A stretch of DNA of 64,000 bases, taken from the NCBI GenBank assembly GCA_016748015.1, contig JAAOMT010000034.1, forward strand, positions 558,001 to 622,000. The letters run 5' to 3'. The DNA is from Geosiphon pyriformis uo1. Its lineage: Eukaryota > Fungi > Glomeromycota. Both the position numbers and the translations under genes were made by a program. The notes under the pieces are model-generated. The model was not told the DNA's origin. It ran no database searches and saw nothing but the letters and a program-made list of their open reading frames with translations. Shown piece by piece: positions 25,200-51,800 of the stretch (position 1 is its first letter; each line of letters starts with the position of its first letter).

Positions 25200-26183
25200 T
25201 GTTACCAGACAAAATTAAAGATATTGTTTAACATGAAATTACTCTTATAAATCATATTATTAATTAGCATATATTATCGTTTCAAATTATCACTTATTAC
25301 ATTAGCAAAATGTCCGAAATTATCATTTAATTAATAACCCAATTTGTACATAACACAAATGTAACCTAAGTGCAATGATCAATCATGCAATATCCCGAAA
25401 TATATAACATTCAAAAGTTCGCTGAAATTTGTAGAAATTTGCCAAAATAATTGATAGTTCACCAAAATATCTAATAGTTCGCAGAAATAACTTGTAATTC
25501 ACCAAAATGTATCTTTAGTTCAGTGAAATTGTAGAAAAGAGCAAAGTTCAAGTTCATAGAATAGTGTTATGACAAGTTGTATAAAAAAAAAGCTTCTCTC
25601 TTCGAGAAAATGTATCTTACTTTAGATTTATCACTTAGAACCATTCCTACATACACAAAAAGAAAAAAATACCAAATAAATTTGGAAAAAACCAAATTCT
25701 TTAATTATTGCACTTGGAAAATCCCCAAAACCCAACTAACGTTTTGAAATTGATTAGCTACCAATTTCAGTAAACTGTTAGTGACTCCAGGCCTGGATAA
25801 AAAACATTTCTCTTGACAGAATTCTATTTTTTTTACATTTTTTTTATTTTCTTTCTTTTATTTTCTTATTATAATCATTAGAGTAGCCTACAGACAAGGT
25901 TCCTGTAGAAGAGTTGACTTTTACAGCAAAGTAACTACACATCTTAGTGAGCTTCCAGATGAGCAATTCTTGGAAAAGAGTTGACATTTACTACAATGTA
26001 ACTACACAAAGCAACTGGTATGGAGTTGGCCATTCTACTTATAAGCCCAGCAGTTTAAATTATAGGAGATAATTTGAAGATAAATTCAGTTATCAGAGGT
26101 TCAAACACTTCTCATAGTTGTGAATTAACAGCATTACAATAAACATACAAGAGCTAAGAAGAGACCAAAAACCTCCAGTAACA
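25200..26183 (+). repeat. 5' LTR of element A
   Basis: Direct repeat of 35074-36058; TATA-like gtataaaa at ~25579. Confidence 0.97.
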
Positions 26184-29100
26184 TTTGGTGCTCTTCTATG
26201 GAAATAACACAGCAACAACAACTTCAAAAGTGGCGACTCAAACAGATTCAAGAACTCTAGAGTATTATCAGTCAATCTACACCCACTGCAAGCAAAGATT
26301 TAACATTCCAGACAGAATTGAAACATTCAAGAAAACACTTTACCAGTACATTGAAAATTGCATCAACAATTATCTTTTTGGAGACTACAACATTTCAAAA
26401 GTTAGACACAACTTATATGAAAGCTTAGTATATTACTCTCGTCTAAACATTCAGGATTTTAACAGTCAAACACTTGAAACATATTTCTAAGAACTCAATT
26501 TCAATATCATTCAGTATTGTGAAGAGAATTATCCAATAGAACAGAAATTTTCTCTTGGTTTTGAATCGGAAACAGAAGAAGAAAAAAGAAAAAGGAAACA
26601 AAAACTCAGAACTACTCCCAATACACCTAAAAACACTGCCAAACATTTACAAACTCCAGAACAAGGAACCAGCTTTAAATTACTACTTTCAATCACACCA
26701 TTTCCAGCTTCACTTGTTCAACCGCAAACACCAAGCTCACCACTTATTTGGTTTTCAAGAATAGAAGATTTTCAGTCACCCAAAAGCCCTATTCAACAAC
26801 AGGAACCAATATTAACCAGCACAAACTTTATTGACTACTTAGCAGAAAATCAAAGTGAAAAGACTGAATCAGAACAAAAAATAGAAAACTCAGAAAACAA
26901 AGAAGAAATGGTCTTCACATATATCGCAAAAATCCCTGAGTTTACAGAAGAAGACAGCAAAACCAGTCTTCAAGAATGGCTTGACAAAGTCTTAAAAGCA
27001 AGAGATACAAATGGTTGAAACGCTGCCAGAATATTAAAAGCAATTCTATACTTCTTACAAAGAATGGCCGGTGAATGGTTTGAAAACTTGGAAGCCCCAT
27101 CAGAACACTGAAAAGCATTCAAAACTGCTTTTCTAGAACAGTTCACTGACAATAACACTTCCATCACTCTTCGAATTCGGTTTCGAAATATCAAACAAGA
27201 ACCAAGTGAATCAGTTATGACCTATCTTGGGAAATTCAACAAACTGCTTAGAAGGATTCGGCAATTGGAAACCAATGAATACTACTCCAATGCACAAATC
27301 TTGGATCAATTCATTGCTGGACTAAAAGACAAACTTATTAAGAAAGTTTGCCCACATGCATCAGAAGATTTAGCCACTGCTATTCAACAGGCAAAAAACT
27401 ATGAAATAGCCATGGAAAAAACCAACCATACCAAACTTGTTAATCTGGCTATTGGAGAAACCAGCTCAGCAGCTGAAAAAAAAATTGACCAATTAACCAA
27501 GAAAGTTGAAAACTACTTTACCAACCAACAACAACAACAACAACCCCAAAGATATCAACCACCCCAAAGACAAAATCAAAATAACTTCACACCACTTTCT
27601 AATAACCAGTCTCAGAATTGCTATTACTGTGGAATCCCTGGCCACTAGAAAAGAGATTGCAGAAAGCTACAACAAGACCAACAAAATAAGAGTAATCAAT
27701 GTTACCCTCCACCACAGCAATCTTATTATCAACCACTACCACCAGCTTACTATCCACCAAGATCCCAATACCAAAGTAACTATTATCAGTCCACCCCACA
27801 GCCAATCCAACAGCAATACCAACAACCACCCACACAATATTATCAAGTGTCTGCTCAAAGATTGATTCCACAAAATCAGTTCACACCACAAAACCAATAC
27901 CAAGTAAATAACAATAGAATCAATTCAAACAACCAATTGGTTTTCTGAAATTCAGCTCAACCAAGACCCAACCACTATTATACTCAACCTAGTTATTTTA
28001 CGATGCCAGAAGAACAGGGTTTTTACCATACTGCACTCTCAGAAGGTAGAGCTGCAGCATAACAACAAAACTCTTCCTATACTCTTACCACAATCCCATC
28101 AGCCAGAATTGCTAAAAATGCCAATCTTTCAGATATATTCCCTTTTGAATTTAAAGCAAATGAATTACCATTCTTGCTTAGGAATGCAGCAGCTAACAAG
28201 CAAAAAGCCATCACTGCAATGTACACAGAAGCTAAAGCAGAAGAAAAGCCAATTTGCTTGATTCTAGACAGTGGATCTACTGGAAACATTATTACATATC
28301 AATTAATGCAGCAGCTAAAAAGGAATGTTGACCAACCAGCTCAGACAATCATTGTCACTGCTGATGGTATGAAAAAGACTCCAGTAAGAGAAATTGATAA
28401 CTTCCCATTCACAATTGACAGAATCACTATTCTAGTCAAAGTTCTGGTCATGGATGCTCCCCAATACCAAGCTCTCATTGGAAACAATTGGCTCCAAAAA
28501 GCCAATGCTAATCTGAATTGGGGAACATAAGAGTTAACAATCTCCTACCAAAAACAACATGTCCGGGTACCTGCCACTTGTGGTACATTCTACAAACACT
28601 CCAAAAAAGCCCCGGCTTTTGAATTCGAACTGGAAAAAGAAAAACCCATCATTGAAACATTTATGGCACTTGGATCAACCTCCAATTGGGCTGATGAAAC
28701 TGAACAACAGTATTTTTCAACAAATAATTCTCTTAAAACAAAAGAACCAGTGACATCCAGATGGAATGTCCCCTATTCAAAACCAGAATCATGAAAACAA
28801 TGCCCTTACATTCTACTCAAATGCAAAAATTGCCACAAAAAACTCTCATCAATGGGAGCTTGTATTTCACCCAAGGAAGAATACAGAAATCATACCTGTT
28901 ACTATTGCAAATTCTGTCACCGAGAACGATGGGAACACCTAGTCAAAAGAAGTGGAAAATGGGACAGAATGCCCTGTTTGACTTGTGGAGAATGATTACC
29001 TGATGAATGCAACTGGATTGATGTTGCATTTAGAGAAGGAGTCTGCAATCAAACATGCCAATATGTTTTTTTAATCTCAGAAAAAGTAACAAGAGGAACT

Positions 29101-29579
29101 CCTTTTGATGCTGTTTACAATAGCACCCTCAACAAACTGTATCATTACTTTTATGATGCTGAAATGATTTTCAATCTAGCAATGGCTTTAATCAATGGAG
29201 CCACTCAAAAAAATGTTCGTCAAATAAAGAAATCAGAATACATTGCATACACCTTTGAAATCACTGGATACAACTATGAAAATGAAGTAGAAGTATATCA
29301 CCAAATTGCCAATCACACTTACCTAACCAAAGAAGCTTAAGCCCAACAGTTAGAGTAAATGAACATTAAATTGTGTGAAGAATGCATAATGCCTTGCGAT
29401 AAGCAATGGTGCCCTGAATGCTATGCTCTTAGCATTCCTTTGCCCAGTGAAAACAATGAAAACAAAATTGAATTTGGAGAACCTGAAGCAACAGAAGAAA
29501 TTAAAGCAACACCCATCTATTTTATTGAAAATCAGTCTGCCTTATAACTCAAATACTTCAACAACAATGGACAAGGAAT

Positions 29580-29975
29580 AAAACCCAAAAAAGCACATGA
29601 AATTAATACTGGATATGACCTAAGATATCCAGACAAGGATACTCTTGTCCTCAAATCCAAATCTTTCACAAAAATCAACCTCAAAATTGTCTTCGAAATC
29701 CCACTAGGAGCAATGGTTCAAATTGCCTCCTGGTCCTCTCTGGCAAGCAAAAAAATCAATGTCAGAGAAGGAATAATCAATGCTGGATATACTGGTGACA
29801 TAACAGTAATACTTCAAAATGAAACCAATAAATCTTTCAAAATTGAACATGTTGAAAAAATTGCTCAAGCTATCTATTTACTCTTAATCAACATTTTAGG
29901 TTTACAGTTAGTCAATCAAAGAGAACAATTGGGAAAAAGCAAAAAAGAAACACAAGGTTTTGGTTCAACTAGACA
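29580..29975 (+). pseudogene. dUTPase domain within element A pol
   Basis: All five trimeric dUTPase motifs in order, with transition damage: (A)GYDL, (R)SSLA, GII(D)AGYTG, EKIAQ, (RG)TQGFGST. Confidence 0.92.
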
Positions 29976-32729
29976 ATTTATAGTTTCAGTAAACATAGCT
30001 TTTAATGAACAGAATAAGTCTTACCAGATTTTATGCCTTCTTCAACCAATCACTATTTCACCTTTTAGAGAACACCCTGAAATCTATATCTGCCCAAAGC
30101 CAACAACCACCCAACAAATTTTTGAGTCCAATGAACAAATCTGCTTGAAACATAATATCTCAATTCCAAATATTTACATCCCAGAAGGAACAAAGAAAGT
30201 CCGAGTTACTTTTTACAACCCCAATAATTATCCCATAGTTTTATTAAATAACTTAAAAATTAGAGTTATTCACAGTAATATCTTTCAACAAGAATTACTC
30301 CAAACAGTCCCTGATTTCTCTGAAATTATTGGACATTCACTACCAAAAATCAACCCAAACCCCAGCTCCGAAAACTACTATGTTGTCATGGAAAAACTAT
30401 CTTGAATTAACATGGGACAACTTGAACCACAACAACAAAACCAGCTCAAAGAGCTAATTGCAGAATTTGCCGATATCTTTGCCAAAAACAACAATGACTT
30501 AGAAAAAACCAATTTGGTTCAACACTAAATCTATACAAAAGATGCCAAACCAAGGTGACAGCAAGCCTACTGAGTTGCTCCAGAAAGTTACCAATTTATC
30601 CACAAAGAAGTACAATGGATGCTCAACAATAGGCTTATTCAACCATCAATGAGTCCATGGGCTTCACCTGTGGTCTTAGTTAAAAAAAAAATAGAAAGAT
30701 ATGATTTTGTGTTGATTATTAACAACTCAATAGTGTTACCATTGAAAATGTCTACCCTTTTCTCCGAATTGATGACATGCTAGATGCTCTTGGGAAGTCC
30801 AAATACTTTTTGACATTAGATTTAAAGAGTAAATACTGGCAAGTTGCCATGGATCCCAAAGATTGCCTCAAAACAGCATTTACCACTCAAGGAGGAAATT
30901 ACGAGTTCAATGTAATGCCTTTTGGATTATGCAATGCACTAGCAACATTCCAAAGACTCATGGACATTGTTTACAAAGGCCTTCTTTGGAAGTCAGTAGT
31001 TGTTTATATTAATAATACTGATGTTTATTCTCCATCATTTGAATTACTTAAAACACCTATGAGAAGTTTTTCAATGATTACAAAAAGCAGGACTGAAACT
31101 CAACATTGAAAAATGCTACTTTGGAAAAACAAGCTTGGTTTTTTTTGGTTATATCATTAGTAAAGATGGAATCAAACCAGACTCTAGAAAAATCAGCACT
31201 GTCAAAAACTTCAAAACTCCTCAAAACACTACAGAACTAAGAGGATTCATAGGGTTAGTCTTCTACTATCGGAAGTTTATCAAAGGATTCTCAGAAATCA
31301 CAAAATCTCTCAATCAGCTTACCACCAAAAACATCGAATACAAATGGACTGCTGAACATTGAAACCAGCCGAAAAGAACTATCCTGCAACAGAATTAGAA
31401 ACTACAGCAGTAATCTGGGCCCTACATCACTTCAACCTTTACCTCAGACCCAAAGAATTCGATATTATTACTGATAATATTGGACTTAAATGGCTTCAGA
31501 ACAAAAACACTCAGCTAAATGCAAAACAAACCTGATGGACAGGATTTTTAGCCAACTACCAATACATTGTACACCACAAACCAGGAAAACTCCACACCAA
31601 TGTTGATTGTCTTTCAAGAATGAGGCAAGATTAGAATACAAAACCAACACCCATTTGAATTAACAACAAAAAAACAAACAATGAACCCCAAAAACTACAA
31701 CAATCTTAAACAATATTTGGAGACATTAACAATCCCAACAGATTGGTCCTCAGATAAAAAACATCGGTTACAACAACAAGCCAAACAATACTTCTTACAC
31801 AACAACATAATTTATTATCGAAACTTCAGAAACCCAAACAATCTACTCAGATTAATACAAGAACATAAAAAAAAACCATTTTATATAACATACACTCAGA
31901 CCTTTTATCAACACACCTAGGAAAAGACAGCACCACCCAGAGAACACTAGAATATTATTTTTGGCCTTAAATAAGAAAAGACATTCATGAATATGTTAAG
32001 TCTTGTGATAGTTGTTAAAGAAGAGGAGGAACTCGCCTTACAGAATCTTTAAACCCAATCAAAGTTGGACAGCCTTTTGACTGAGTTGGTATCGATTTAG
32101 TCAGACCACATTCTATCACAAACTAAGAAAACCATTATATTGCAGTAGCTGTAGATTATCTTACCAAATGGTCTGAAGCCAGAGCCATTCAACAAACAGA
32201 TGTGAAATCAGTAGCAAACTTCATCTACAAAGACATTATTTGTAGACATAGATGCCCAATAGAACTTTTATCTGATCAAGGAACACATTTTGTAAACAAT
32301 TTAATCCAGGAAATTTGTGGACAATGTTACAGATAAACTTGGTAGGTATAAAAAATAGTAACATTTGGTATTCTTAATTATTGATGATATGTCTTTCACG
32401 TAATTCTGTTGGCTTAGTCTTGATTATCAGTCTCTGAAGGTCTATTCCTGAATGTGAATTTTACCCGTTGAGTTCTTTGGTTATAAGACACAGAGTTTGT
32501 CTTTTGTCAATTGCAACATTTTTCGTAAATATAAGCTTTCTTTTCCAAGCTAACGAGTGCAGTCATTAGGGTCTGGCATTGTCTTTTCATCCTTCTGATA
32601 AGCTAACAAGATAATGTTAATATCCAAAACTTAGGAAGAGCTTTCTTTTTTTACCAGACTATCACAAAGTCTATTCTCAGACAGTCGATTTTACTATGTT
32701 GCCACTCCACAAAAATAAGACAGAAAAAG

Positions 32730-32865
<136 letters not shown>

Positions 32866-33270
32866 AAAGAGAGAAAAGATAAATTAGTATCATCAATCGC
32901 CGTGATCAAGAGCAATTGGTTCAAATCATTAATAGGTTCGAAGTGGTTATGCTAAGAGCATCTGTTTTAGAACAGAGATATGAGACAAAAGTTAATTCAT
33001 GTAAATTTCACAAAGTTCGAGAACATGAATTCATGATTCTAATTTCTTTAATAATTGGTTTATTTTAGGAGATAAAATAGGGAAGATAATAAAGGATAAA
33101 GGGGTATGGATATTTTAATTCTGGTCTAGAGGTTCGTATCTATCTGTCTGTCTTTTCTCACTTCTACAACTACTTGCTTTTATACATTCTTTTGGTTTTA
33201 CAGGATTGCTTTCAATTGTCTTGCTATCACTAGCTATTGCTTTGTTGTTTCTGTTATTGCTTCATTTTTC

Positions 33271-33460
33271 TACATTATTGCTAGTTATTCTATATTATAA
33301 CATGTTATCTAACATTATTACATGTTATTCTGTGTTATCCTGCATTATAACACGTTATCCTACATTATTGTGCACTATTCTGTGTTATCCTGCATTATAA
33401 CACATTATCCTACATTATAATATGTTATCCAACATTATTGCGCATTATTCTGTGTTATGT
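33271..33460. repeat. 10-bp-period minisatellite (YRYRTTATNN) in U3 of LTR D
   Basis: ~19 consecutive 10-mers such as tacattattg, cacgttatcc, tgtgttatcc. Confidence 0.85.
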
Positions 33461-34426
33461 CACGTTTTGGTCATGTTTCTTCATAACTTTAGATCAGTTT
33501 TTCTACTCGGGTAACAACAATTTAATGTCAAAAAACCATTATTTTCACCCTACTATCCACAAACAAATGGACTTGTAGAACATTTCAACAGAATATTGTG
33601 TAAATTATTAACCAAAGTCTCAACTGATTTTGAGCAAGAATAGGATCTCTTTATTCCATCAGTGTTACTAGCATATAGAACACTAAAACAAGATACCACA
33701 AAACACACACTATTTGATTTAACCTACAGAAGAACAGCAATGTTACCAATTAGTTTTACAATAGAAACATATCTAGTACAACCAATTAATAAAGACAACT
33801 TTCAGGAAACACTACAACAAAGAGCCTACACTCTGCTTAACATGTTGGAAGGAAAATGACGAATAGCAGCCACCCATATTAAACACTCCCAAGCTCAATA
33901 AAAAGAATGGCATGATGACAAATTGCCTTTATTTACCAATAGATTTAAAATCCAAAACAAAGTTCTCTTATACAGAACTAAAGCTGAAAAACAATAGAGT
34001 GGAAAATTTGAAAATAAATGAGATAGACCATTCTTTATCCATGAAGTCCTAGGCAACAGATCATACAAGCTAAGACTTGATGACAAAATCCTAGCAAAAG
34101 TTGCACATGGAGATCATTTGAAACACTCTAATTCCAGACACAATCCTGAATCATTAATTCCACAAATTGGTATACATTCCCCTTTAATCAATTCTGAAGA
34201 TATTCTCTGAAATTTAGAACCAATAGTTGTCATTGAACAACCTCCCAACTTGAACACTTAACTTAAATTTATTATTATAGTTATCTTCTTATAATTTAGA
34301 AACAATCTCACAAAAACAAAGCAAAAATAACATAAAAACCCATACACCAAAAAATAATTTTCTTTTATTTTCAAATCTCTTATAATAACTATTCCTCAAA
34401 ACATTTAACAATTATCCCAAAAACTA

Positions 34427-35105
34427 ATGTTAGCTTTAAAAACAATACCCGAATTATTTATTACTGTTACTGGAAACCACATTAATTATACCCAAACAGA
34501 AGTAGTTACAAATTTAGCCCAAAAATTCATGAAAATATCACCCATATAAAAAGAACACAAGAAGTTATTCTGGAATTCATTTGCCAGAACTTTTAAAGCT
34601 TGCTTTAAAAGAAAACTTAATGCTCACTCCAATTAGTATTCCACCAAATGCTACAATTCAACAAAAACTTCAACTGTGTCTTAATAAGGAAAGCATTGAA
34701 TACCTTCCAATCTATAAATATTTCTACATTGGAAAAACACTCTACAAACAAAAACTGGAACTTACAACAGCAAACCTCATAAAAAAAGCTATTCAGAAAC
34801 AATTCCACAACGAATTCAAGACAACAGCTGGACCAACAAACAGTCACTACAAGCTCAGAGCTGCTTTTAGACTTTATGGCCTATTTCACACCTGTGAAAA
34901 CGTTCTACAAAACCCAATTTTACAGCCTTTGAAGATTCAATATATTGGAAAGCTTACAGAACTGAAATTTCAACAATTTTCAGACCAAATTTCTTCAATA
35001 ATTTTGGATTATTATCTGGAAATTACAGACAGTACTTGGACTTCAACAGAGCTCAGTTTTGAAGAGAAGGTTATGTTACCAGACGAAATTAGAGATATTG
35101 TTTAG
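34427..35105 (+). CDS. Accessory ORF3 of element A, between integrase and the 3' LTR (unknown function; 5' part disrupted)
   Basis: A 174-aa open frame (34581-35105) runs through the PPT into the LTR, with a probable upstream ATG at 34427. Homologous sequence sits at the same position in family C (21570-21860). Confidence 0.65.
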
Positions 35106-36058
35106 CATAAAATTACCCTTATAAATCTTATCATTAATTAGCATATATTATCATTTCAAATTATGACTTATTACATTAGCAAAATGTCTGAAATTATCAT
35201 TTAATTAATAACCCAATTTGTACATAACACAAATATAACCTAAGTGCAATAATCAATCATGCAATACCCCGAAATATGTAACATTCAAAAGTTCGCCAAA
35301 ATTTGTAGAAATTTGCCGAAATAATTGATAGTTTACCAAAATATCTAATAGTTTGCAGAAATAACTTGTAATTTGCCAAAATGTATCTTTAGTTCAGCGA
35401 AATTGTAGAAAAAAGCAAAGTTCAAGTTCATAGAATAGTGTTACAACAAGTTGTATAAAAGAAGAGCTTTTCTTTTCGAGAAAATGTATCTTACTTTAGA
35501 TTTATCACTTAAAACTATTCCTACATACACAAAAAGAAAAAAATACCAAATAAATTTGGAAAAAACCAAATTCTTTAATTATTGCACTTGAAAAAATTTC
35601 CAAAACCCAACTAACGTTTTGAAATTGATTAGCTACCAATTTCAGTAAACTGTTAGTGACTTCAGGTCTGGATAGAAAACATTTCCCTTGACAGAATTCT
35701 ATTTTTTTTACATTTTTTTTATTTTTTATTTTTTATTTTCTTATTATAATCATTAGGGTAGCCTACAGACAAGGTTCCTGTAAAAGAGTTGACTTTTACA
35801 GCAAAGTAACTACACATCTTAGTGAGCTTTCAGATGAGCAATTCTTTGGAAAAAGTTGACGTTTACTACAACATAACTACACAAAACAACTGGCATGGAG
35901 TTGGCCATTCTACTTATAAGCCCAACAGTTTAAATTATAGGAGATAATTTGAAGATAAATTCAGTTATCAGAGGTTCAAACACTTCCCATAGTTGTGAAT
36001 TAACAGCATTACAATAAACATACAAGAGCTAAAAAGAGACCAAAAACCTCCAGTAACA
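35074..36058 (+). repeat. 3' LTR of element A
   Basis: Direct repeat of 25200-26183. Confidence 0.97.
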
Positions 36059-36902: not shown

Positions 36903-37566
36903 TGTTATGATTAAAACTCATATTTTTATTAGTTATTATAGGTATTAGCCATTAATGTCATATAATTAGTTACCCTATTTTTAGATAGTAATTATTAATC
37001 TAATTATTAATCTGGTTATTAACTACTTTCAATAGCTATATAAGTAATAAGTTTCTTAGCTGTAGAAAGATATGATCAAAGTAATAAAATAAAAACCATT
37101 ATTAATTACTTTTTCTTATATTACTTATTCTTTTTTTTCTATTTTCAAGTATTTAAATATCTTGGAATAAAAAATTACTTGTTGGTATTTACATATTTTA
37201 TCTTTTTCTCTTCTTGATTTGTATTGTTAAAATTAGCCTAAGAAGCAATTGCTTGCTCTTGTAATTTATTGAATAAAAAAACAATTGAAAAACACAATAA
37301 TACCTGTTATTGATTCTAAAAATTGCCAAGTTGAGGCATAAAATAATAGCAGCAATATTATTTTGTTAACAATCATGGACTATTTCTCTATCTTTAGATT
37401 TCCAGAAAAGATTTACAAATGTGATTTTTATGAGACTAATCATGTATATTGAATTTTTACTTATTTAATTTATCTCTTTATTGTAATTTTCTCTTTAATT
37501 ATTTTTATTATTCTATAATTCTGTTCTCTCTTGTTATCTATTAGCTTATTACTCCAACTTGTAACA
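36903..37566 (+). repeat. 5' LTR of element B (664 bp)
   Basis: TGTTATG...TGTAACA; direct repeat of 43885-44572. Confidence 0.95.
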
Positions 37567-38717
37567 TAAAAGTAATGCTCCCTGTAAGATTGTCAAAATC
37601 CACTTTGTTTCTTATTGTATGAGTGATTATTTATATTTGCCATAACAATTAGAAGAACACTTTAAAGCACATAACAAAAACAATTTAGACTTTATCAAAC
37701 TTAATTCTTTATCCTTCTGCTTAATTTGCTTTCTCATTAAAAAACAATCCAGTAGACAATTCCAAGATTTTTAGAACTGGTTTTTGAACAAGCATTTAGC
37801 TAAAACCTATATAGTCTATACAATCTATTACTTTGACCAAGCTTATCTTAAAGACAACTTTAAAGAAAGAAACAACAGCATCAATCAGCTTTTATATTCC
37901 ACAATCTTTGAACAACAGCCTTCTGATTTCAAATATCTGAATCACCAAATTCAGGATTGCTGCCTATTAGTTAATTAAAATCCTTTTGAAACAAAAAAAA
38001 AAGTTATCAAACTGTTTCTGTTTTTAATTTTATCTCAAACAAATCAGAACATTCTACACAAATAGTTACTTCTGAACCAATGGCTAATAACTCTATACAA
38101 ACAAACATTCTGGCTGTCTTTTAGAATATACAAACTATTTTAAAGTAAAGAAATAACACCTCATTACTATTATTCAGAGGTGATATACAAGATCCAATTG
38201 AATGGTTAAATAACTTTGAAAGAGCTGCCATAACCAACCAATATAATAATAAATACAAGTTCCAAATCATTGGTAACTATTTTCAAGGTTCTTCTGCTAT
38301 TTGGTTCTCACAAAAAACCAATGCCAATACTCAACAAAAAATTATTAGATAAACACCAGCAAATGCTGGAAAAAACAATATTTCTTTTACTACTTAGTTT
38401 GAAAACAAATTCAGAACTCTTATTTTAATCTCAAAATGGCATATAAAATTAGAAAAAAAAAACCAAAGTCTTGGTAAAGTTGTAACTGAGTATGTCAAAC
38501 AATCAGAAAGCTAATCAAGCAAGTAAACTTTAGAAAAAACTAGACAGAAGAGCAAAAGATTTATTCTTTTACAAAAAAATTGAGAACTAATTTTTCATAT
38601 GTTTTTTGGTCTTTTTTGGCTTTAAAAAATAATTCAACAATAGATATGACTATTGAACTTGCCCAATAAATTAAAAACAAACAAAAGATGCACTTGAAAT
38701 TCACATTTTCAGTTTTT

Positions 38718-38762
38718 GCTCCTGTTTCTGTTATGGCTCCTGTTTCTGTTATGGCTCCTGTT
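38718..38762. repeat. Perfect 18-bp tandem duplication in element B gag
   Basis: (gctcctgtttctgttatg)x2.5. Confidence 0.85.
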
Positions 38763-41700
38763 CCTTAAATGGCTGTCACTTTTTTTACTGCTCAGACTTC
38801 AGATTCCAATAAACAATTAATAGATAGACTTACAGCCAATTTTGTCTGGTTATTAGAGTCTTTAGTCCAAGCAGTCAAAAAGAATTAACAATTCTAAAGA
38901 TCCAGATTTAAACTTTGTTTTAATTAGTCCCAGCAATCACTATATCAAAGACAACAAAATGGTTTATTTGTATGCTACCACTATAAATTAACTAGACATT
39001 TCTCAAGAAATTGTAACAATTCTCTCTTATTCTTTCCAGTCTTTAGAAACAATGACAATTAAAACAACAGAATCATTAACAACAATGTCCTCAATTAAAA
39101 ATCCAATCAAGCCAACATTAATTTCTTTGGAGAAGATCCCCTAGTTAAAATTATTGTTTATCAGCCTTTAAACTAGTAGGTGCACTTTTAAAGAATAAAA
39201 GTGCAAGCTAACTAGAAAAAAACCTCTTTTACACTTTTAATTTAACTAATAATGACCATAACATAGATAAATTGGCAATCAACACTTTTGATTTAACAAA
39301 AAAGAAAAAAAAAGCCAAAGTTAATTTTGCCTTGAACTTCAATAAAGCTTTTTCATTAACTGTTGATAACAATAAGCCACCAAAGATTAAAGTTTTTAAG
39401 AATTCTCCAAAGTTAGAACTCCCAAAAATAGTACAAAAATCTAATATCTATTCTATTGTTAAAGATTTCATGAAAATCCCAGTGCATATAACTTTTGGCC
39501 AATTAATAACCCATCCACAATTCAGAAAAAACCTTTACAAATCTCTGATTTCAAAGAAAAAAACACTAAAAGCCAACAAGTGCTTTCATTAAACTGGACT
39601 TGTTGACAACAGCAATGTTACTTCTCTTATTTGCAAAGTCCAAGTGGCTGATTACTTTATTGACTTAATCCTAAACAATATATTATCTGTAAATATTATT
39701 GCCAAACACTTCCTGGAAGTTATTAGTAGAAAGATTAATGAATTTTTAACTAGACCAATAATTAATATACACAGTAACAAAAAGAAAGAGCTTGGCATAG
39801 CCAAAACGGTTTCTGTTTGCATTAATGACATTAGCATTGAAACTAACATAGAAATATCTAAAGCAAAAAAGTATATTATAATTGTAAACAATGAGTGGTT
39901 TGTCAAAGCACTATTTGACTATAAACTTTGTAAACTAACTATCAGATGTGATAAAAAACCCATTATGATTAAGTACTATTATTGGACAACTCCTTTAGTA
40001 CTTAAGCAAAGTCAAGAAAATAAACAATCAGATAAATCAGATAATGAAAAGAGCAATGAAAAAAAAAATCAAAAAAAACAAAAAAAACCTGCTAAATTCA
40101 TTTATACTATCTTTACTAGCAATAACAAGCTACTAGACAATATTAAAACTAACAAAGAAAGAATTATTGTAAATAGCAAGCTAATTTGCTGGTTTTACTA
40201 TAATATCCTTAGAAGAATTTTTAATAGAAAACCAGACAAGAAAGCAAAATACAGTTATTAGTGACATAACCCTTATGTTTAGTGCTAGTGTAATAAACTT
40301 TTGTATTTTCCTAATAATGAATGCAAATTCTGTCTAATCTACTACAAAGATTGGAAACTTATTAGTCTAATACTAAGAAGAGAAATAAAAGAAGTACAAA
40401 AGTCCTTTAAGAATAAACCACCTAAAATCTAATTACTTGTAATAAAACAAAGAAAACTTTTCTTAAAAGAAAAAAAATAGACATTGAAAATCTGTTGGCT
40501 AGAAATAGCTTAGTTATCTCAAAAAAAAGTGATATCTTTAGATGAATTTATATAATACAACACACTATTATTACCAGAAAAACTTGTCCTATCTATTTAA
40601 AGTTTTATCAATTCAATCAACACAATAATAAGTTCATCAAGAAAGAGATAAACCAAATAAAAAATCTTGAATTCATACAAAAAATCAAGAATAAATAGGC
40701 TTTTTTAGTTGTAGTGATATTCAAAAAAGATAGAACCTTATGTTTTTGTGTTAATTATCACTAATTAAATGTTATTACTATAAGAAACATATACCTACTT
40801 CTTAAAATTGATACAATACTAGACAAATTTAATGGTACTGCTTTCTTTTTAACCATTGATTTAACTGCTAAATTCTAATAAGTAGAAATAAATTCAGAAA
40901 GCAGAAAAAAAACTGTCTTTATTACCAAATATGGCATCTATGAATTCACAGTTATGTCTTTTGGTCTTATTAATGCTCTTTTTATCTTTTAATGCCTAAT
41001 AAACAAAGTGTTTGAATCAATAAAAAAAAACTTTGTTTTGGTCTATTTGGATAATATAATAGTATACTTAAAAACTTGGGATAAATACTTAGAACATTTA
41101 CAAAAAGTTTTTAATCTTCTTAGAAATGCTGGTCTTAAGATCAATCCAATCAAATTTTTTTTTGGATGTCAATTTATCCAGTTTTTTGGTTATTTTATTA
41201 TAAAAAATAAAATCTTTTCTGACTCAGCTAAAGTTAAAAAAGTTCAGAACATTAAACAACCAATGAATATTCCTGAATTATGCTTTTTTCTTGGTTTGGC
41301 TTCTTACTACCACAAATTTATCAAGAATTTTTCTAAAATCACCTTTCTTTTTAATCAGCTACTCAGAAAAAATGTTAATTATCATCATTAACAAAAAGCT
41401 TTTAAAACTCTGAAGAAAAAACTTATTACTGAACCAATCTTTAAACAACCTAATTTGGACCAATCTTTTATTCTGCACACTGATGCATTTGGCTATGAAC
41501 TTAATACTGTTTTTTCACAAAAAGATGAAGATGGCAAAAAACATGTTATAACATATGTCAATAAAACTTTCACGTCAGCAGAACAGAACTATTTAGTTAC
41601 TAAACAAGAATGCTTAGTAGTAGTTTAGACTACTAGCTACTGAGACCAATATTTTTTTGGTGTGAAATTTTTAGTAATAACAGATTATCAAGTCTTGGTT

Positions 41701-43258
41701 TGGCTGCACAATAAGAAAAAACTGGAACACAAATAAATAATTCACTGAATATTCCACTTAAATGAATTTGATTATGACATTTAATATCACAAAGAAGCAA
41801 ATTATCAAAATGCTGATGCTTTTTCCAGACTTACTATTCAGTAATAGTACAACTTTTTAACCAAACTAACTTAATTATTAGTATTTTTTTCTTTGACAAA
41901 CATGATAATAAACTTAAATTACTATTTTGTCTTAATAAAATTTTTGAGTTAAGGACAATACTCACCAGAATATACTTAATAGCAAAAAGAACATTTATAC
42001 AAACAATCAAATTTTTATTTGATTTACCAGAACCAACTATATAAAAAAAATAGAAAAATTTCTGACCATTCTTAAAAAGTTATAAAATTTAAAGAAAGAG
42101 AAATTGTGATCTATAACATGCATACTGATTTATTAGCTGAACACTTTGAAAAAACAAAAACAATTCAGAAAATCTTAGCTTGCTATTATTAGTATATCTT
42201 AGGAAAAAACATTGCTGAATACATTAAAATCTGTAACATCTGCCAAAAAAAAAGAAAATCTAGTCATAAAAAAAATATTCATCCAATTTTTGTTGGTTAA
42301 CTATTTAACAGAATTGATATAGATGTTATTAAACCTCTAACAATAACTACTAATAGCAATAAATATATTATTACAGCTACTAATTATCTTATAAAGTGGA
42401 TAGAAACAAGAGCCACTCCAGACCAAACAGTAGTCTCAATAGCCAATTTTATTTATAAAAATATTATTTGTTACCATAACTGTTTCAAAGAATTTTTATT
42501 TGATAAAAAAAAAGCTTTTTTTAGTACACTGGTTAAAAAACTTTGTAGAAAAATGGGAATATGTCATAAACTTTCCTCTTCTTAATACTCTTAGACAAAT
42601 GACCTAATAGAATGTTTTAATAGAATATTATGTAAAATTTTAGCCAAAACCAGTAAAAAAACAAACTTATAAGACAAAGTACTGCCTTCAACTTTGTTTG
42701 CTTATAGAATTGTAAATTATAACATAATAAATTATAAATTTTTTTATTTGCTCTATGGACACATAACAACACTACTAATAGAAACTAATATTAAAATAAT
42801 ATTCTTTAAAGAAATTACAATAGGGAATTATAAAGACATTTTGCAAAAAAAACTTGGTACTATTCTTGACTCATTGGTAGAAACACAAATAATTGCCTTT
42901 GAAAAGATAAACCAATTTCAAAAAAAGCTTAAAAAAAAACTTATAAAACACTTTTTTTAAGTATTAGTAATTTAGTTTTGGAATACTATTCAGACAGAGA
43001 CAATGTCTATAGTAATAAATTTTCTAGCCAATAGAAAAAACTCTTTTTAGTCAACAAAGTTTTGAACAATGGTTCTTATATTCTACAAAATCAATATAAA
43101 ACAATCTTCAATAATTGTCCTATTTATGATATATAATTTAAAAAATATTACAAATAATCTGATTGGTTGCTTGTTGTGATAATATTAATTCAAATAATTA
43201 GCAAAAATTAGGTATAAATAAATGCACTATTTCTAAAACAGAGATATCTTCAATCAAT

Positions 43259-43884
43259 ATGAATAATTATTTTTTGGATCAAAACATTCAAAACATTTTC
43301 TATATTCTTTATAAGTATTGAATCAAAAACTATTCAAATACTACTCTAACTATTGAAAAACAGATCACTATAATTGATAATAATGGAACATATACTGTTA
43401 TTAAACCCAAGAAAACAACTACCAGAAGAGAAAAAATATGTAACAAAATGGATAAATATCTGCTAAAAAGTATAACAACAGCAATACTTTTATCTTTCAG
43501 TACAATTAAAAAAACAATCCAAGAAATCTTACTTATAGACAAAAACTTATTATATAAAAGACAATTAAAATTCTATGGTCACTTTTATAAAACCATAAAA
43601 GATATGAAACTCATAAAAAAAACAATTTCAGAAATCCAGATAGAAATTTTGGATATTATATGATTAGATATTTCAAGAGTTTTAACTATTACTAAAAGAA
43701 CCAAAACTCTTATATAAAGATTTGGTTTCTTAAATACAAAACTCATTTTGTTTCAGATATTATATATCTTATCTACAAAAGACTTCAATAAACTAGTTAG
43801 TTTTAAGCTAAATAAAACTTTTCAAATAGATTATCTTATGAATAACTTGATTTTGCCTAAGTTTAATCTCTTTGGAAAGGATAA
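43259..43884 (+). pseudogene. Accessory ORF3 of element B (decayed)
   Basis: ATG at 43259 is in frame with ORF 43448-43663. It lies between the integrase end and the PPT, with TATAAATA at 43213-43220 upstream. Confidence 0.5.
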
Positions 43885-44572
43885 TATTATGGTTAAAACT
43901 CATATTTTTATTAATTATCACATATATTAGCCACTAATATCATATAATTAGCCATTCTATTTTTAGATAGTGATTATTAATCTGATTATTGACCTAGTTG
44001 TTGATCTAGTCATTAACTTAGTTGTTGACCATTTTTAATAGTTATATAAGCAATAAGTCTCTTAGTTGTAAAAAAATATGATTAAAATAATAAAATAAAA
44101 TTCACTATCAATTACTTCTTCTTATGTTACTTATTTTTTTTTCCCTATTTTTAAGTATCTGAATATCTTGGAATAAAAAATTACTTGTTGGTATTCACAT
44201 ATTTTATTTTTTTTTTTTCTTAATTTGTATTATTAGAATTAGTCTAAGAAGCAATTGCTTGCTTTTGTGATTTATTAAATAAAAAAACAATTAAAAAGCA
44301 CAATAATATCTGTTATTGATTCTAAAAATTACCAAGTTAAAACATAGAATAATAGTAGTGGTGTTATCTTGTTAACAATTATGGACTATTTCTTTACCTT
44401 TAAATTTTCAAAAAAGATTTGTGACTGTAATTTTTATGAGACTAATTACACATATTGAATTCTTACTTATTTAATTTACTTTTTTATTGTAATTCTCTCT
44501 TTGATTATTTTCATTATTCTACAATTCTGTTTTTTCTTGCTATCCATTAGTTTGTTACTCTAATCTGTAATA
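43885..44572 (+). repeat. 3' LTR of element B (688 bp)
   Basis: Direct repeat of 36903-37566 with two extra 12-bp units. Confidence 0.95.
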
Positions 44573-45805
44573 ATATTTATTATAAATTTATAATAAATTT
44601 TGGTTTATTTTTTATAACAAATAATAATATTGTTTTTAAAAATATTAATTATAATATAAATATAAAAATTTATAAAACTTTATTGTTAATATTAGTTAAA
44701 TTTTAATTATTATTAATATTAAAATGTGTTTTTAAAAATAGTTTTTACATAATTAACATAAATTAAAACCAAATTAATGTTTAAATATTTTAATTTTAGA
44801 AACAAATATTGATTAAAACATTAATATATTATTAATTTTATTTGTAATAAAAGATTAATAATTAATCAAATTAAACTTAAAAACTATTTTAAAATTTTTA
44901 ATAATAAATTAGCTAATTATATAATAATACAAATTAATTTTTTTGGTTATATACTTTAACATAATATTTAAATAATGTAAATATTTTTAATTTGGCTAAT
45001 TAAATAAAAATAAAAATTTATATATAAGTATTTAAATATAATTTTATTAAAAAACATTAATTAAAACAAATTTATATTGGTTTAATATTTAGATTTATAT
45101 TTTAAAACTGGTTTTATTAGTTTTAAAACTATTGAATTTAGAATATATATTATAAAAACATTATATAATAAAAAATTATACAAATATTTAATTTAAAATT
45201 ATATAAAATCTTAATATTTTATTGTTTTTAAGTATTTATAATAATAAGTTTTAGTTTTTGCTTTATATAAAACATTAGTTAAAAATTTTGTGTTTAAAAA
45301 TAATTTAATAATACTTTTAAAATTTTTGAATTTGTTAAATTAATTATATTAAAAATTATAACCAAAATTTAATTATTTAAAACAATATTTTATAATAATT
45401 ATAAAAAAAATAAAATGCTTTTTAAAATTTTTATTAATAATAATAATTTATATATAATAAAGTTATATATTGTTTTGATTTATTTACAATTAAGTTTTTT
45501 GAATTAAAATAATTAATGTTTATTAATATGTATAATAATTTGAAATTTTTTTAAAATACATAATTTTGTAAATTAATTTATAAAAAACAGTAAATTTAAG
45601 ATTAATGTTTATACAAGTTAATATTATTTCAATTAGTTTAAATGGCTAATTATATATAAAAAATATATAAATATAATTATTATAAAATATTTTAATTTTG
45701 TATTATAGTAAAAAATTGGGTTATATTTTATTACAACAAAAAATTACTTAATTTTAGTTTATAAATTTATTTATTTTGATTTTTTTAAATTACTAAAAAA
45801 ATAAA

Positions 45806-48800
45806 ACTCTTTCTTTTATTGATTTTCTGGTCATAATAAGAACATAAAATTGCCAAAAAAATAACTTTTCTTATTTTTTTTTTCTTTTTCACTTTTAGTT
45901 ATTTTTTTTAATATACTTATTTTTGTTGCTATAAAACTAGTAGGCTTTTCTGTTGGTGGCTCTGGTTCTGGTTTAGCTAAATTGAAGACCCAGTCTAACA
46001 CTAAAAAAAAGTGCATATTAAGAGTATCTATTTTTATGGTTTTTTATATAAAAAGCCAAAAAAACTTAATGTTTTTGGTAACATAATAGAATTATTAATT
46101 GGCTCTTTATCTGTTAACATGTTGCAAGCTAATAAGAATAAATACAAAAAATCTTAAAATAGTAAGATAAATAGTAAAAAAAACAGTGTTAATAAAATGT
46201 CAAATATTAAAAACATAAAAAACACAATTGCAAAAGAAATGAGTTACATAGATTCTAATGCTTTTAAAACAAATAACATAATAAATGACATGACATGACT
46301 CTAAAAAACACAAATAAGGACATATGTTTTAAGACAGCTGTTAAGTATGTCTTTTTTTAAAGTTTTAAGTAATAATAATAATCCAAATTGGTGCTTTTGG
46401 TATTTAAATTTGTTGGTTCCAAAAAATTGTCATTAGCCAAGTTATAAAATAAAAAAATTAGAAATTTTGGTTCAATAAAGTTTTTTGCACTGGATGTTAA
46501 ACTTTTTGCAATGTTTGATAAAACATTTAGAGATAATTTTTTGTTTATTAAAAAAATTTTATCATATTAACAGTTTTGAAAAAGCATCAACTCTCCCAAA
46601 ATTTTTAGGCATTATTAGATTAATCTTTATTTCTTAACTAAGCTTAAACAAAGCTAAGAAATTGATTATTAGTAAAAAATTTTTAGCAAATAATAATGTT
46701 AGAAAAACAAACAATTGTACAGATTGGAAAGTGATTATTAAAAAAATCTCAGTAAATTTTCTTAAATTGACAGTAGAATTAGTCTTTTCTAAATTTAGTA
46801 AGATAGTTTTAATTAAAATACAGCTGATTGGTCTTTGGCAAAAGACTTTAGTAGAGTTTGAATTATCAGATATTGCTGGTTTGATTGCTTCTAAATGATC
46901 AGTTTTTATGGAAAAAAATTCTGTGTGTGTGACATTAACTGTTAATAAAAAATAATTATGAATATCTAGAGATTTTTATCAGACTTTATTATATACTTTG
47001 TCTGTTAGCATTACTGCTTATGATTTTTTTGATTTGTTGAAATCATATAGTAAGAAAACTTGTTTTATTGGTCATAATTTAAGTTTATATATGCATAACA
47101 GATGTGCTATAATTTTTTTTGTTAATAAAACATCCAAGAAGACTGCTATTGATTTTATTCCAGTTTTTAAAGGTGTACATTTGTGCTGAACTGGTTTTTT
47201 TTTGGCTTATTGTGTTTAATATGAGCAATTTGGTCATGTATCTAATATGTGTTTAATAAATAAAAATCTGAATGGTCACAATAAATAAGTGGTTAATTTT
47301 TAGAACCAAATTTGTTTAATAAATATATATTTAAAAAACAAATACCAATTGTTTATTTGGTTTTATTTGGTGAAAAAACTTGGGCTTAAATTGTTGGTAA
47401 TTTTATTTTTTATATAATGCCTTTGGTTTTTTCTGGTGCTGGTTTATCTTTGAATATTAAATTTTTTTTACTAATGTCTTTGAACTTGAATATAGGTTTG
47501 CTGCTCTTGAATACAGTTTTACCAGTCTTGTAAAGCAAATTAACAAACTGGTTAAGAAGTTGAATACACTTGGACTAATAGTTTCTCAGCTTAACTTTGA
47601 ATGTTAGTTGTTAGTAACTTTTTTATCATAGAATCAAGAAGTGAATATAGTGTTGAATGAGAGTTTAGATACAGTTACTAGTAATAAGACTGTTGTAAAA
47701 ATAGTATTTTTAGATTAATCAGTAGTTTTTAGATTAGAAAACAGTTTGATAAGTTTCTTAGATATGGTTATAGACTTTTTGGCCAAGATAAATAATATTG
47801 TTTTGGATTCAGATTTTTTTTTATCTCAATAAACAGTCTTGTTTGAAAGTTTGCTACATATAATATTTGGAGTATTAATATTCTTGCTAAGCAAAAGGAT
47901 GTTGTTTATTAATATACAAATTTGAGTAATATGGTTTTTTTATTATGAAGATAAAGTTAAAGGCTAATATTAAATCTTAAATTGCAAATAAGTTTAATAA
48001 AATACAAATATTCATGTCTGAATTGGATAAAAGTTTTTTCAGTGCTGAAATAGTTATTGTTATAAGCAATTCTTGGTTTAATATGTTTTTAAGATTAAAA
48101 AGATTCTTGGTCATGTTATTTTGATATAGCTTTTTTTTAAAAGCAAGCTTTTAGTTATGGTTCTGAGTTTGTATACTAGTGCTTCTACTGATACTAGATT
48201 TGGTCAAGCTTTAGATGTTAATTCTCTTATTGCTAAGACTATTAACTCCAGTACTTTTGTGGTCTTGTGTGAAAATTTTAATGAAAATAAGTCTAAAAAG
48301 AGTGTGAGTTTCAAGTTTTGTTTGGATTTAGGTTTGGTTAACTTATTTGGTGAACACCCATTGGTTAAAACCTCTACTTAGAACAACTTAAAAGGTATTA
48401 AAAAGGTTTTGGATTACATTTTTATAAGTAAAAATTTATTGTTAACAGTTGTTGATTATGAAGTCAACTTTATGTTCACATTTTTTAACACTGATTATAA
48501 GACTGTTTTAATGTTGATTGGTTTAAGTAGTCTCTTAAATATTTATTTAAATAGCATACACAAACAAGCTAATAAAGATTGTTAAAAGTTCAAAATCAAG
48601 AATATATATAGTGCCAAATAGACACAATTTAAGAAATATTCTTTTGTCAAGCTTTTAGTAATAAAAAATATGTTTTTAAAAGCAAAAGCTCATGGTAATT
48701 TAAATATTATGTAGAATTTGCTAAAGAGAGTATTGGTGAAGTCAGTTGATAAAACATTCTCTAAATATTGGTTCAGTAAGTTTTAATATTTACAAAACTG

Positions 48801-51800
48801 GCAGTTTTCTAAGTTTTTTAGATTAGAATTGTTAATTGCTAAGATTATTAAAAAGTTAAGCTTAAGTAACATGCTTGAATTTAATTATTTTGCTAAAAAA
48901 TGGTCAACTTTAAATGATGGCAAGACTTTTAAAATCATAAATATGGTTTAAAACAATAAAAAGTTAATGAATATTTTCAAACAGTTGTTAATGATTTGAA
49001 AAAAGTACAAAAAGTTCAAGCTTTATAAATCAAAATTAGCTGAAAAAGCATATATCAAGAAGGTAATTGAAAAGCACATAAAAAGTTTTTGTTCTAATAA
49101 AAGAGATATAATAAAGAGTATTTTGGATCAGCTTTTTTACAAGATGATTTTAAATCACTTGGTAGTAGAAAGAAAGTTGATTTTGGAGCCAGAAAAAATA
49201 AAACTTAGTATTAATAAGATTATAAAAGGTTAAACAAAAAAATAGGCTGTGTTTTAGGTAATGTTTGATCTATAAACTTGCCAATATACACTATTAAATT
49301 ATGTAAATAATAATGTTTTTTCTGGCATATTAAAAATAAGCAGTATAAAAAAATTGCTCTTGGTGATTAATAGTTTGCTTGATAACAAAGCTGCTGATTT
49401 GTTTGGCATTCTTAATAAACTTTAAAAACATAGTAGTAATAATGTGATAAGATGTCTTTTAGAATTATTAAATACATGTTTGTTCTTTAATAGTGTTTCA
49501 GTTGTATAGAAAAGAGCCTAAGTTTCAATGATCCTTAAATCTTATGACTGAAATAGAGTTTTGATAAACATTTGATTTATTGTTTTAATTGAAACAGCCA
49601 GAAAAATTCTCTTTAAAGTTTTATCCAATTGGATTTTATCTGCATATTACAAGTTTGGTGTTCTCTGTAGTAATAATTTTTTTGTTCTAAAGAACACATT
49701 TACTCAATTTTTTGTATTTGTAATTGGTTCAGTAGTTAAAAATACTTTAGAAAAGAATAGAAAACTTTGGTTGGTCTTGTAAAATATGCACAAAGCATAT
49801 AACTTGGTTGGTTGGTACTACTTAAAAGCTAGCTTGCAATAAATTAAAATATGCAACAAGTTTATAAAATTTTTTGGCAGCATACATGAAGATAAAGTCA
49901 ATAAAGTAATAACTAATTTTGATTTCTTAAGTAAATATAGAGTATATGATAAATTGAATTAGAGTAAAATCTTCTTATTTTTTCTTTGAAGAATTTTTTA
50001 TAATCTACTTTTGTGTAAGATTAAAAGACATAAACATTTGTACAGATACCAGATTAATACCAAGTTTGTGGTTAAAATAAGCAAAATAAAAAATAATGAT
50101 AGAATGTCTTCTTTTTTTGCTGTTAGTATATTTGTGAATGATATAATTTGGATCAGAAATTGTCAAGCTTTTATGTAGTATGCTGTGGATATTGTTAGTA
50201 AATTTTTTTTGATTAATAATATTTTTGTTAATAATAAAAAGACTATGGCTATTTTTATTAATTAGAGTATTAAAGTTGTCTTTTTAAAAATTAATAGCCT
50301 ACCAATTTTAATAGTCAAGAAAAATAAGACTTACAGATATCTAAGAATTTTTTTGTTAACTAAAGAGTTATTCAAGTCAAGTCTGTCCAAGATTTATTTT
50401 AATGTTTAATTTTTTGTTAATGTGGTTTTTAGGAAAGCCATTACAGATAAGCAGTTTTTATATTTAATATTGGCTATTTTGTAACTTATAGTTAATTATA
50501 AGACTCAGTTTAGTTTTGTCTTGTTAAGTATATATTGCAAATAGGATGTTATAATTAGGAAGAATTTCAAGTCTAAAGCTTATTTGTTATGTAATTTTTC
50601 TAATAAAACTTTGTATCATTCTTTCCTATATGATTTAAAATCATTTAAACAAATGCAGTTTGAAGAAAAATTAGTTGTGTTAATTATTTTTTTTAATACT
50701 TTGGACATTATTAAATGCTTGTTTAATTACAAATTCTTAGATTTATAGATTTTAAGATGAGCTCTTTTGAATTTTTTGCAGTTTTTTATTAAGTTATATA
50801 TTAGTCCAGTAAACAATTTTTTGGTTAAGGTGATAAAAATTTTTTTGGACTTTAAATTATAATTTGTCCAATGTATTTTATAGTCCTAATAAGTTTCTAA
50901 TATTAGTTGTTTTGAGGCAATTCTTGTACTTTAGTTTGGTTTATTTTTTAAAGTGATTTGGAATTGTATTTGGTAATAGGCTTTTAGATAAAAAGTTCAA
51001 TATAATAGATTAAAAAACTTTTTGTTATTAGAAAAAGTTAAATTCTAAAGACTCTGTACCTTATTTATTTAAGATTATATTAAAATTTTTACATGATAAA
51101 AGGTTTTTATTGATTGATTTAGCTGAGACAAATCTGTTATTTGGCTTGAATATTTTGAATTCTAAAAATTTTTTTAATGTATAAAGTTGTTTATATAAAA
51201 TTTGGTTTGGCTCTATATAAATATATATAGATAGATTTTTGAAAAATGCTGGTTTTGCTGATGTTGTTAATAAAACTGCTACTTATTTCCTGACTGTAGA
51301 CATGAGTATTAGTATAAAAATACATAGACTTCTGTTTTTTATTATGGCTAAATTGCAGACTGTTGCTTTGTTTTTGAAGTGTGTTCTATTTTTCTGTACA
51401 GTAATTTTGTATTTAGACAACTAAGCCATTATTAATACATATGTATCTAAATTAATGTTAATTATATTTGACTTTTATAATTAATACTGAATAGAAAAAA
51501 GACATATTGTTAATTTAATTAAAGATAAATATCTTATTGTAAATTAAATAAAAATTAAAAGTTATTTGGAAATTTCTGGCAATAAAAAAGCTAATATAAT
51601 TATAGACAAGACTACTTATTCTCTTTTTTTTTTGTTAAAAGAGGTGTAAGAATATTTTTTAATAGTTAAAAGCACAGCTGTATTTAACAATACTCATTAT
51701 TTTGTTTGAGATTTATTTAAGTTTATTAGTTATGTTTGATGAAAAGCTAGTTTTGGTCATAATATTATTTTAAATACATTAATTAAAAAAGTAAATTGAG

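Follow-up and report, generated by a model that had tools for sequence, protein, structure and literature searches.

Transposons of the Glomeromycotina fungus Geosiphon pyriformis erode by one-way C-to-T change with a sequence preference unlike that of classical RIP

Introduction

Can a fungus outside the Dikarya load its transposons with C-to-T mutations as heavily as the species that practise repeat-induced point mutation (RIP) do, and if so, by the same mechanism? The question is raised by a 64,000-nucleotide window of the Geosiphon pyriformis uo1 genome (GenBank assembly GCA_016748015.1, contig JAAOMT010000034.1, forward-strand positions 558,001 to 622,000; coordinates below are those of the window) and in particular by a dead Ty3/Gypsy retrotransposon within it, which we call element A (25200..36058, plus strand). 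Geosiphon is an early-diverging fungus related to the arbuscular mycorrhizal fungi (AMF). An original prediction, made from the letters of this DNA, had proposed that a strong genome-defence mutagenesis resembling RIP acts on its repeats in an apparently non-Dikarya host. The changes in the transposons prove to be almost exclusively C:G>T:A, one-way and on both strands. The pattern is like that of a repeat-directed C>T mutagenesis, but it fails two tests of canonical RIP, CpA preference and strand coordination. The predicted position of the host outside the Dikarya is borne out by its single-copy gene FANCI (58335 onward, minus strand): the closest match of the protein is from Ambispora, and a quickly built tree of 18 rows joins it to the two Ambispora rows, inside the Glomeromycotina, with maximal support (SH-like approximate likelihood ratio test, 100).

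Results

Element A has long terminal repeats (LTRs) with TG...CA ends (5' LTR, 25200..26183; 3' LTR, 35074..36058; both plus strand) and a 4-bp target duplication, ATGT, at 25196-25199 and 36059-36062. It is assigned to Ty3/Gypsy because the gag, aspartyl protease, dUTPase and reverse transcriptase (RT) domains recognised by Pfam are followed, downstream of the RT, by RNase H and integrase motifs; LTRs, target duplication and the order gag-PR-RT-RH-IN are thus all present. Its gag-protease-dUTPase-RT(N) frame (26185..30690, plus strand, 1502 codons) runs without a frameshift to about 30690 and holds 16 in-frame stops. Most of the transposable element (TE) stops had been traced to CAA, CAG, CGA and TGG codons, and eight of the nine that are covered by family proteins do align to Gln or Arg, the remaining one being unclear. 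The reported conversion of catalytic Asp to Asn is likewise present, both Asp codons of the RT motif now reading Asn (YINN, 31005..31016, plus strand), with a second case, FVND, at 50131.

Aligned over their whole length (985 columns), the two LTRs differ by 51 transitions, 4 transversions and 1 gap, a transition/transversion ratio (Ts/Tv) of 12.75. The earlier hand count for the first ~410 bp was accurate: 29 differences, of which 27 are transitions and 2 transversions, with 12 at CpG. When C or G is taken as ancestral, the T/A allele is on the 5' LTR at 22 of the 51 transition sites (10 C>T, 12 G>A) and on the 3' LTR at the other 29 (14 and 15), so that both strands are affected, as had been claimed; at four CpGs the mutated strand differs between the LTRs. 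This polarity is supported because 35 of the 41 differences between the window copy and the majority of its family are C>T or G>A. Sorted by context, the transitions comprise 15 at CpG, 16 at CpT, 11 at CpC, 8 at CpA and 1 unassigned, which per site amounts to 15/30 for CpG, 11/51 for CpC, 16/110 for CpT and 8/112 for CpA. The 36 non-CpG transitions against 4 transversions exceed a Ts/Tv of 2 (p=6e-4) or 3 (p=0.016), but not of 4 (p=0.076). A second, older Gypsy element, element B (36905..44569, plus strand; GC 24%, observed/expected (o/e) CpG 0.02), is still more extreme, its repeat pair (36905-37563 and 43887-44569) differing by 93 transitions and 3 transversions in 657 columns (Ts/Tv 31), with only 6 inferable CpG sites. 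Passive decay of methylated CpG does not suffice on its own: 36 of the 51 transitions in the element A pair, and 87 of the 93 in the element B pair, lie outside inferable CpG. At two positions, 26036 and 26056, both LTRs have T where most of the family depth (64% and 94%) has C, which suggests that copies transposed after having already mutated.

The direction and strength of the changes can be followed across other copies of the family. The dUTPase-containing open stretch of element A (29548..30405, plus strand) has 279 protein matches, of which we used the best 120, all named Geosiphon pyriformis; these split into 68 query-like copies and a subfamily of 37, with 15 divergent rows set aside. 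Codons were taken from the window copy and changes counted per copy, so that inherited changes are recounted. In the 68 copies, C:G>T:A changes occur at 1071 of 11,135 opportunities (9.6%; plus strand 8.4%, minus strand 10.8%), against 83 of 16,642 (0.5%) for T:A>C:G and 94 of 67,940 (0.14%) for transversions; a further 40 changes require a double C>T step, and another 44 are unexplained. The strong one-way load on both strands that had been predicted is therefore real. Of 90 columns with A/T-rich codons (Lys, Asn, Ile, Phe, Tyr), 66 are invariant, as against 2 of 95 for Gly, Ala, Pro, Glu, Asp and Ser, and the subfamily of 37 behaves alike (71 of 89 against 3 of 90). Conserved dUTPase positions are mutated as often as the remaining ones. 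Among the 120 matches the best full-length identity is 84%, and 117 of 120 clusters have a single member. With a pairwise amino-acid metric, the family has a Ts/Tv of 8.5, compared with 0.75-1.75 in six sets of retroelement proteins of other genomes. This is a loose control, which includes divergence under selection; four of the sets have named members, and these come from a pseudoscorpion, Asteraceae, Chara and frogs. An RT search for AMF relatives returned mostly animal and plant elements, with none of 29 representatives named as AMF and 10 without a name. The contigs of run X1, which is perhaps the source of this DNA and hence not independent, show 1348 transition and 190 transversion places over 25200-32680 (7.5 kb) of element A; 815 of the places are C>T or G>A, in a stretch containing just 44 CpG. 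An assembly artefact was rejected on the same data, as a single X1 contig covers the host stretch without any difference and X1's own contigs display the excess of transitions.

The window copy itself is heavily loaded in the dUTPase stretch: of its 205 visible C/G sites, 36 have changed, and this 17.6% is double the LTRs' per-copy load (8.3%; p=4e-4) and double the family mean (9.6%). Its CAA>TAA stops, at about 7-8%, fall below this load. Some of the dUTPase changes may have been inherited from a parent copy in which the gene was dispensable.

With respect to sequence context, CpG mutates at 2 to 4 times the rate of the remaining sites. Outside CpG, rates in the family do not depend on the 3' base (A, C or T; p=0.52) but on the 5' base: 0.131 for TCH, 0.102 for CCH, 0.056 for GCH and 0.054 for ACH (Kruskal-Wallis p=3e-9). 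The order is T>C>A,G, with a 5' T or C about twice as effective as a 5' A or G. The two DNA pairs agree on this effect, together giving 65/156 for TCH against 40/222 for RCH (p=7e-7), as do older pairs of repeats, and TpC is depleted in the most AT-rich tracts of the window (o/e 0.38-0.69, as compared with 1.23 in host introns). A CpA preference is absent both from the LTR pair, where CpA is the lowest context, and from the family. The CpA-based RIP indices are negative on element A (product 0.59-0.90, substrate 1.23-1.77), and screens that rely on them would for this reason miss it. Nor is there a strict TpCpG target in the LTRs, where ACG (5/9) is mutated like TCG (6/13) and most transitions are non-CpG. 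The broad context originally proposed thus holds in that CpG, CpA, CpT and CpC are all mutated, with the refinements that CpA is the lowest per site in the LTR pair and that the 5' base governs the non-CpG rate.

It is a hallmark of RIP that many mutations are made per pass and that they are strand-coordinated. We looked for such bursts in the 855-bp coding stretch of the 59 of 68 copies that have at least 120 opportunities, and in the 984-bp LTRs. Strand balance is homogeneous across the 59 copies (chi2 43, 58 df), neighbouring mutations lie on the same strand as often as under the null (0.535 and 0.539), and neither LTR shows strand runs (p 0.27 and 0.23), so that the proposed check for strand coordination within copies came out negative. 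The load per copy is near Poisson (chi2 p=0.076) in a sample biased toward that result, since it consists of annotated, stop-free stretches ranked by similarity and hides extreme, heavily stopped copies. In mechanism, then, the suspected likeness to canonical RIP is not supported: CpA preference, strand coordination and a burst-like load are all lacking. These data favour many independent events and a gradual accumulation over RIP bursts, although many weak rounds of RIP would look alike, erasing the strand signals.

The changes were said to be confined to repeats, and composition supports this. TE bodies have a CpG o/e of 0.0-0.2, old TEs a GC of 20-24%, and 33 host introns a CpG o/e of 0.88, a GC of 0.26 and a TpC o/e of 1.23. 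The single-copy host genes that serve as control (52800..64000, CpG o/e 0.92) include FANCI and a spliced gene (52800-57850, plus strand); the CpG-rich exon stretch cgtcgtcgtatcggc noted earlier at 55649 is present there, and host genes in general have a CpG o/e of 0.8-0.9. Fourfold sites of FANCI have a GC of 0.38, as against the equilibrium GC of about 6% implied by the TE rates. The changes on the FANCI lineage, a gene under selection, comprise 7 of C>T type, 8 of the reverse, 25 of transversion type and 7 others in 366 columns. Two RNA data sets, X2 and X3, are spliced (GT..AG joints), and X3, from another sample, differs from the host stretch by a single A>C. On element A, X2 and X3 yield just 16 and 7 contigs, numbers from which silence of the element does not follow. 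In composition, as opposed to rates, restriction to repeats is thus well supported. One FANCI intron (62870-62939, minus strand) maps with a GC-AG boundary.

Among the repeats, decay is graded, and both LTR and LINE elements are affected. A LINE copy at 10..3603 (minus strand) has a GC of 39% and a CpG o/e of 0.16, while a related copy at 46452..50016 (plus strand) has a GC of 24% and no CpG; relative to the first, the second shows 373 C/G>T/A changes against 129 in reverse and 235 transversions, in a pair that is older and whose count includes lineage divergence. An AT-rich tract at 44740..45930 has a GC of only 9.7% and a TpC o/e of 0.46, and similar tracts lie at 4001-5000, 11000-12200 and 36060-36760. 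The most decayed repeat-region DNA has a GC of 10-12%. The series 39% > 24% > 10% suggests that such tracts could be the end state of the decay.

Discussion

In its outcome, the Geosiphon pattern resembles the RIP known from Pezizomycotina such as Neurospora crassa, with C:G>T:A changes on either strand of repeats, stops, AT-rich relics and spared genes (PMC12543289), but it differs in having no CpA/TpG preference and no strand-coordinated bursts and in giving negative CpA indices. The activity of Dim2 in Zymoseptoria tritici offers a further parallel: it drives mitotic C>T change in repeats, confined to methylated TEs and amounting to >95% of changes, with no sexual cycle needed (PMC8016269), and Geosiphon agrees with such gradual, independent change in its near-Poisson load, lack of strand coordination and graded decay. 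The hypermutation of the Pucciniomycotina, where the mechanism is also unproven, shares the acceleration by both a 5' T and a 3' G, but is strictly TpCpG (PMC3318451), unlike the changes in the Geosiphon LTRs, in which ACG and TCG are equal and most sites are non-CpG. Passive deamination of 5-methylcytosine (5mC) at CpG, as described for Agaricomycotina (PMC3318451) and compatible with CG methylation in AMF (PMC8647823), likewise makes CpG the hottest site and nearly removes it from old copies, but does not account for the non-CpG majority in the two repeat pairs. Finally, RIP-like mutation outside the Dikarya has been claimed for Zoophthora radicans (Entomophthorales) on dinucleotide indices, with the authors' own caveats (PMC11105155); the same indices are negative on element A.

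What process could leave such a scar? We give a somewhat better than even chance to methylation of the repeats in all contexts, leading to a gradual, DIM-2-like C>T change, as the source of the observed spectrum, direction and context, of the lack of strand coordination and of the intact CpG of neighbouring genes. Silent chromatin would form over inserted copies, whose CG sites would be methylated by an enzyme of DNMT1/DNMT5 type and whose non-CG sites by one of DIM-2 type. The 5mC would then become T site by site during vegetative nuclear divisions, either through hydrolytic deamination with poor T:G repair or through the methyltransferase itself. Gln, Arg and Trp codons would turn into stops and catalytic Asp into Asn, the copy would die, and decay would proceed toward about 10% GC. 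Several relatives make this plausible. AMF are stated to hold DNMT1, DNMT5, DIM-2 and RID, and LC-MS found 32.5-49.5% of cytosines methylated in the AMF Rhizophagus (PMC8298701). Rhizophagus TEs are CG-methylated, with CG sites making up 13.8% of cytosines (PMC8647823), so that by our arithmetic much non-CG 5mC is needed to reach the higher figures. In Phycomyces, TEs carry both CG and CHH 5mC (PMC11258239). Of the strong genome-defence mutagenesis originally proposed, the strong, broad-context and repeat-linked load stands; its enzyme-driven, "active" character does not follow, as slow decay of 5mC in all contexts also fits.

A number of observations weigh against methylation-led decay. The non-CpG rate is ~65 times that of a transversion type, which is near the ratio for fully methylated human CpG, so that passive decay would call either for non-CG methylation at very high density or for poor repair of T:G. 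The excess is also large in a comparison that is not like for like, Ts/Tv being 8.5 here and 1.67 in 36 retroelement proteins whose five named members are from Asteraceae, plants with TEs methylated in all contexts. The load per copy is slightly overdispersed (permutation p=0.012) and mutations lie slightly closer together than under the null (0.569 against 0.544, p=0.011), in a sample whose composition conceals extreme copies and so favours a Poisson outcome. The subfamily of 37 shows less of the 5' preference, a codon-blind test giving p=0.051. Both the 5mC and the methyltransferases of Geosiphon repeats are something we infer from relatives, and the Rhizophagus figures of 13.8% and 32.5-49.5% come from different isolates and different methods (PMC8647823, PMC8298701). 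Moreover, >98% of the C>T changes made by Zymoseptoria Dim2 are at CA, with CG spared (PMC8016269), the opposite of the Geosiphon spectrum (CpG 15/30, CpA 8/112).

The excess and the weak clustering would find a natural place in a true, homology-sensing RIP, in which a RID/Masc1-type enzyme acted in many weak rounds, at cryptic sexual or parasexual steps, on a lineage-specific YpC/CpG target. The very high Ts/Tv of the repeat pairs (12.75 for element A, 31 for element B), the lack of near-identical copies among the 120 matches used, with 84% as the best full-length identity, and the overdispersion all point that way, AMF are stated to encode RID (PMC8298701), and targets of RIP-like processes do vary by lineage, as with TpCpG in the Pucciniomycotina (PMC3318451). 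We nevertheless think it unlikely: there is neither CpA preference nor strand coordination (the latter not decisive, for weak rounds would erase it), the available part of a 2026 review gives RID for the Ascomycota only (PMC13297926), and that of a kingdom-wide screen reports RIP-like signatures in ascomycetes only (PMC12543289). The 5' T preference would also suit a TpC-preferring deaminase (AID/APOBEC-like), or a failure of uracil removal in silent chromatin, combined with mCpG decay. The family rates (TCH 0.131, ACH 0.054), the two DNA pairs and the TpC depletion of the most AT-rich tracts speak for it. However, the preference is just ~2.4-fold, ACH and GCH still change at ~40 times the rate of a transversion type, and same-strand clusters are absent, which leaves it a decidedly unlikely alternative. 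Editing of the cDNA by an APOBEC-type enzyme should be strand-polar, yet both strands are mutated to a similar degree without same-strand clustering, and the LTRs diverged after insertion; we have rejected it as the main cause.

We also weighed two further explanations. Under a neutral, genome-wide AT-biased mutation with mCpG decay, GC-rich TE genes would merely drift, once unselected, to a low-GC equilibrium. The GC of old TEs (20-24%) is indeed near that of introns (26%), and some selection acts on short introns and on fourfold sites. But an equilibrium of 26% needs a C>T/T>C ratio near 3 where 19 is observed, the repeat-region tracts drop to 10-12%, TpC is depleted in the AT-rich tracts and not in the introns, and FANCI has no directional bias, so we regard this account as a poor candidate. 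Sunlight is poorer still. Geosiphon lives at the soil surface, and UV dimers at TC and CC might deaminate in poorly repaired, methylated repeats, in keeping with the 5'-pyrimidine preference; tandem CC>TT changes, however, show no excess, with 27 Gly>Lys where 21.7 would be expected and 6 Pro>Phe for an expectation of 7.1, and the non-dipyrimidine sites ACA (0.042) and GCA (0.068) are mutated like ACC (0.061) and ACT (0.060). UV was accordingly rejected as the main cause and is at most a modifier.

The sequence preference of the erosion is unlike that of classical RIP, and the slowly formed scar is likely that of methylated repeats, an outcome of genome defence. A C>T load of RIP strength is present in a Glomeromycotina genome and missed by CpA indices, in a literature that limits RIP-like signatures to ascomycetes (PMC12543289). 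Neither in Gigaspora nor in the Mucoromycotina have such signatures been detected, according to a paper that cites Venice 2020 (PMC8647823). In 12 of the 19 supplements of the kingdom-wide screen there was no match to Geosiphon (PMC12543289), the available part of a description of Geosiphonaceae LTR expansions from Kimura landscapes has no occurrence of "RIP" (PMC11952901), and two other papers, in the parts available, added nothing on mutation (PMC13443276, PMC7862722). We found no report of transposon C>T erosion in the literature on Geosiphon and AMF, though an earlier mention is possible, for example in the Geosiphon genome paper. A bolder idea, which we hold to be possible but doubtful, is that the Glomeromycotina have an enzyme-driven repeat mutator of their own, a counterpart of RIP with a 5'-pyrimidine-C target invisible to CpA screens. 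If true, repeat-directed C>T mutagenesis would predate the Dikarya, its target shifting by lineage; were it also RID-linked and premeiotic, the scars would document, in the genome, cryptic sex in a lineage that has long passed for asexual. The context T>C>A,G gives a testable prediction for methylome and enzyme, and C>T erosion offers a cause for the AT-rich repeat deserts of Glomeromycotina genomes. The warning that LTR dating would be distorted was justified: the K2P distance of the element A pair is 0.059, against 0.004 from transversions, an inflation of ~fivefold assuming a neutral Ts/Tv of 2, and Kimura ages are inflated too. Many annotated "hypothetical proteins" of the element A family are dead, mutated TE fragments.

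Other features of the window

Two host genes were named from motifs. That at 12300-18900 (minus strand) seems to be a SNF2/RAD5-type helicase with a RING finger, and the spliced gene at 52800-57850 is presumably importin-11-like; Pfam searches with the fragments tried confirmed neither.

The integrase region of element A is interrupted by a nested 1192-bp insert (32325..33516) with TGTTAC...GTAACA ends and a target duplication, ACAA (32321-32324 and 33517-33520), which is likely a solo LTR of another family. Its CpG o/e is 0.58, as compared with 0.17 in the surrounding element. It contains a poly-A run of ~140 nt, the length of which is perhaps an assembly artefact, and a 10-bp tandem array (33265-33458). 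Both ATGT and ACAA would read N-CG-N before one C>T or G>A change, although these are two cases only. Within 31629-31700 the RNase H frame closes at a stop, and a new Met-initiated frame opens before the integrase region. An open frame of ~180 codons (34533-35073) without a Pfam match adjoins the 3' LTR. The dUTPase gene (29548-30000) sits between protease and RT in this large Gypsy family of 279 matches.

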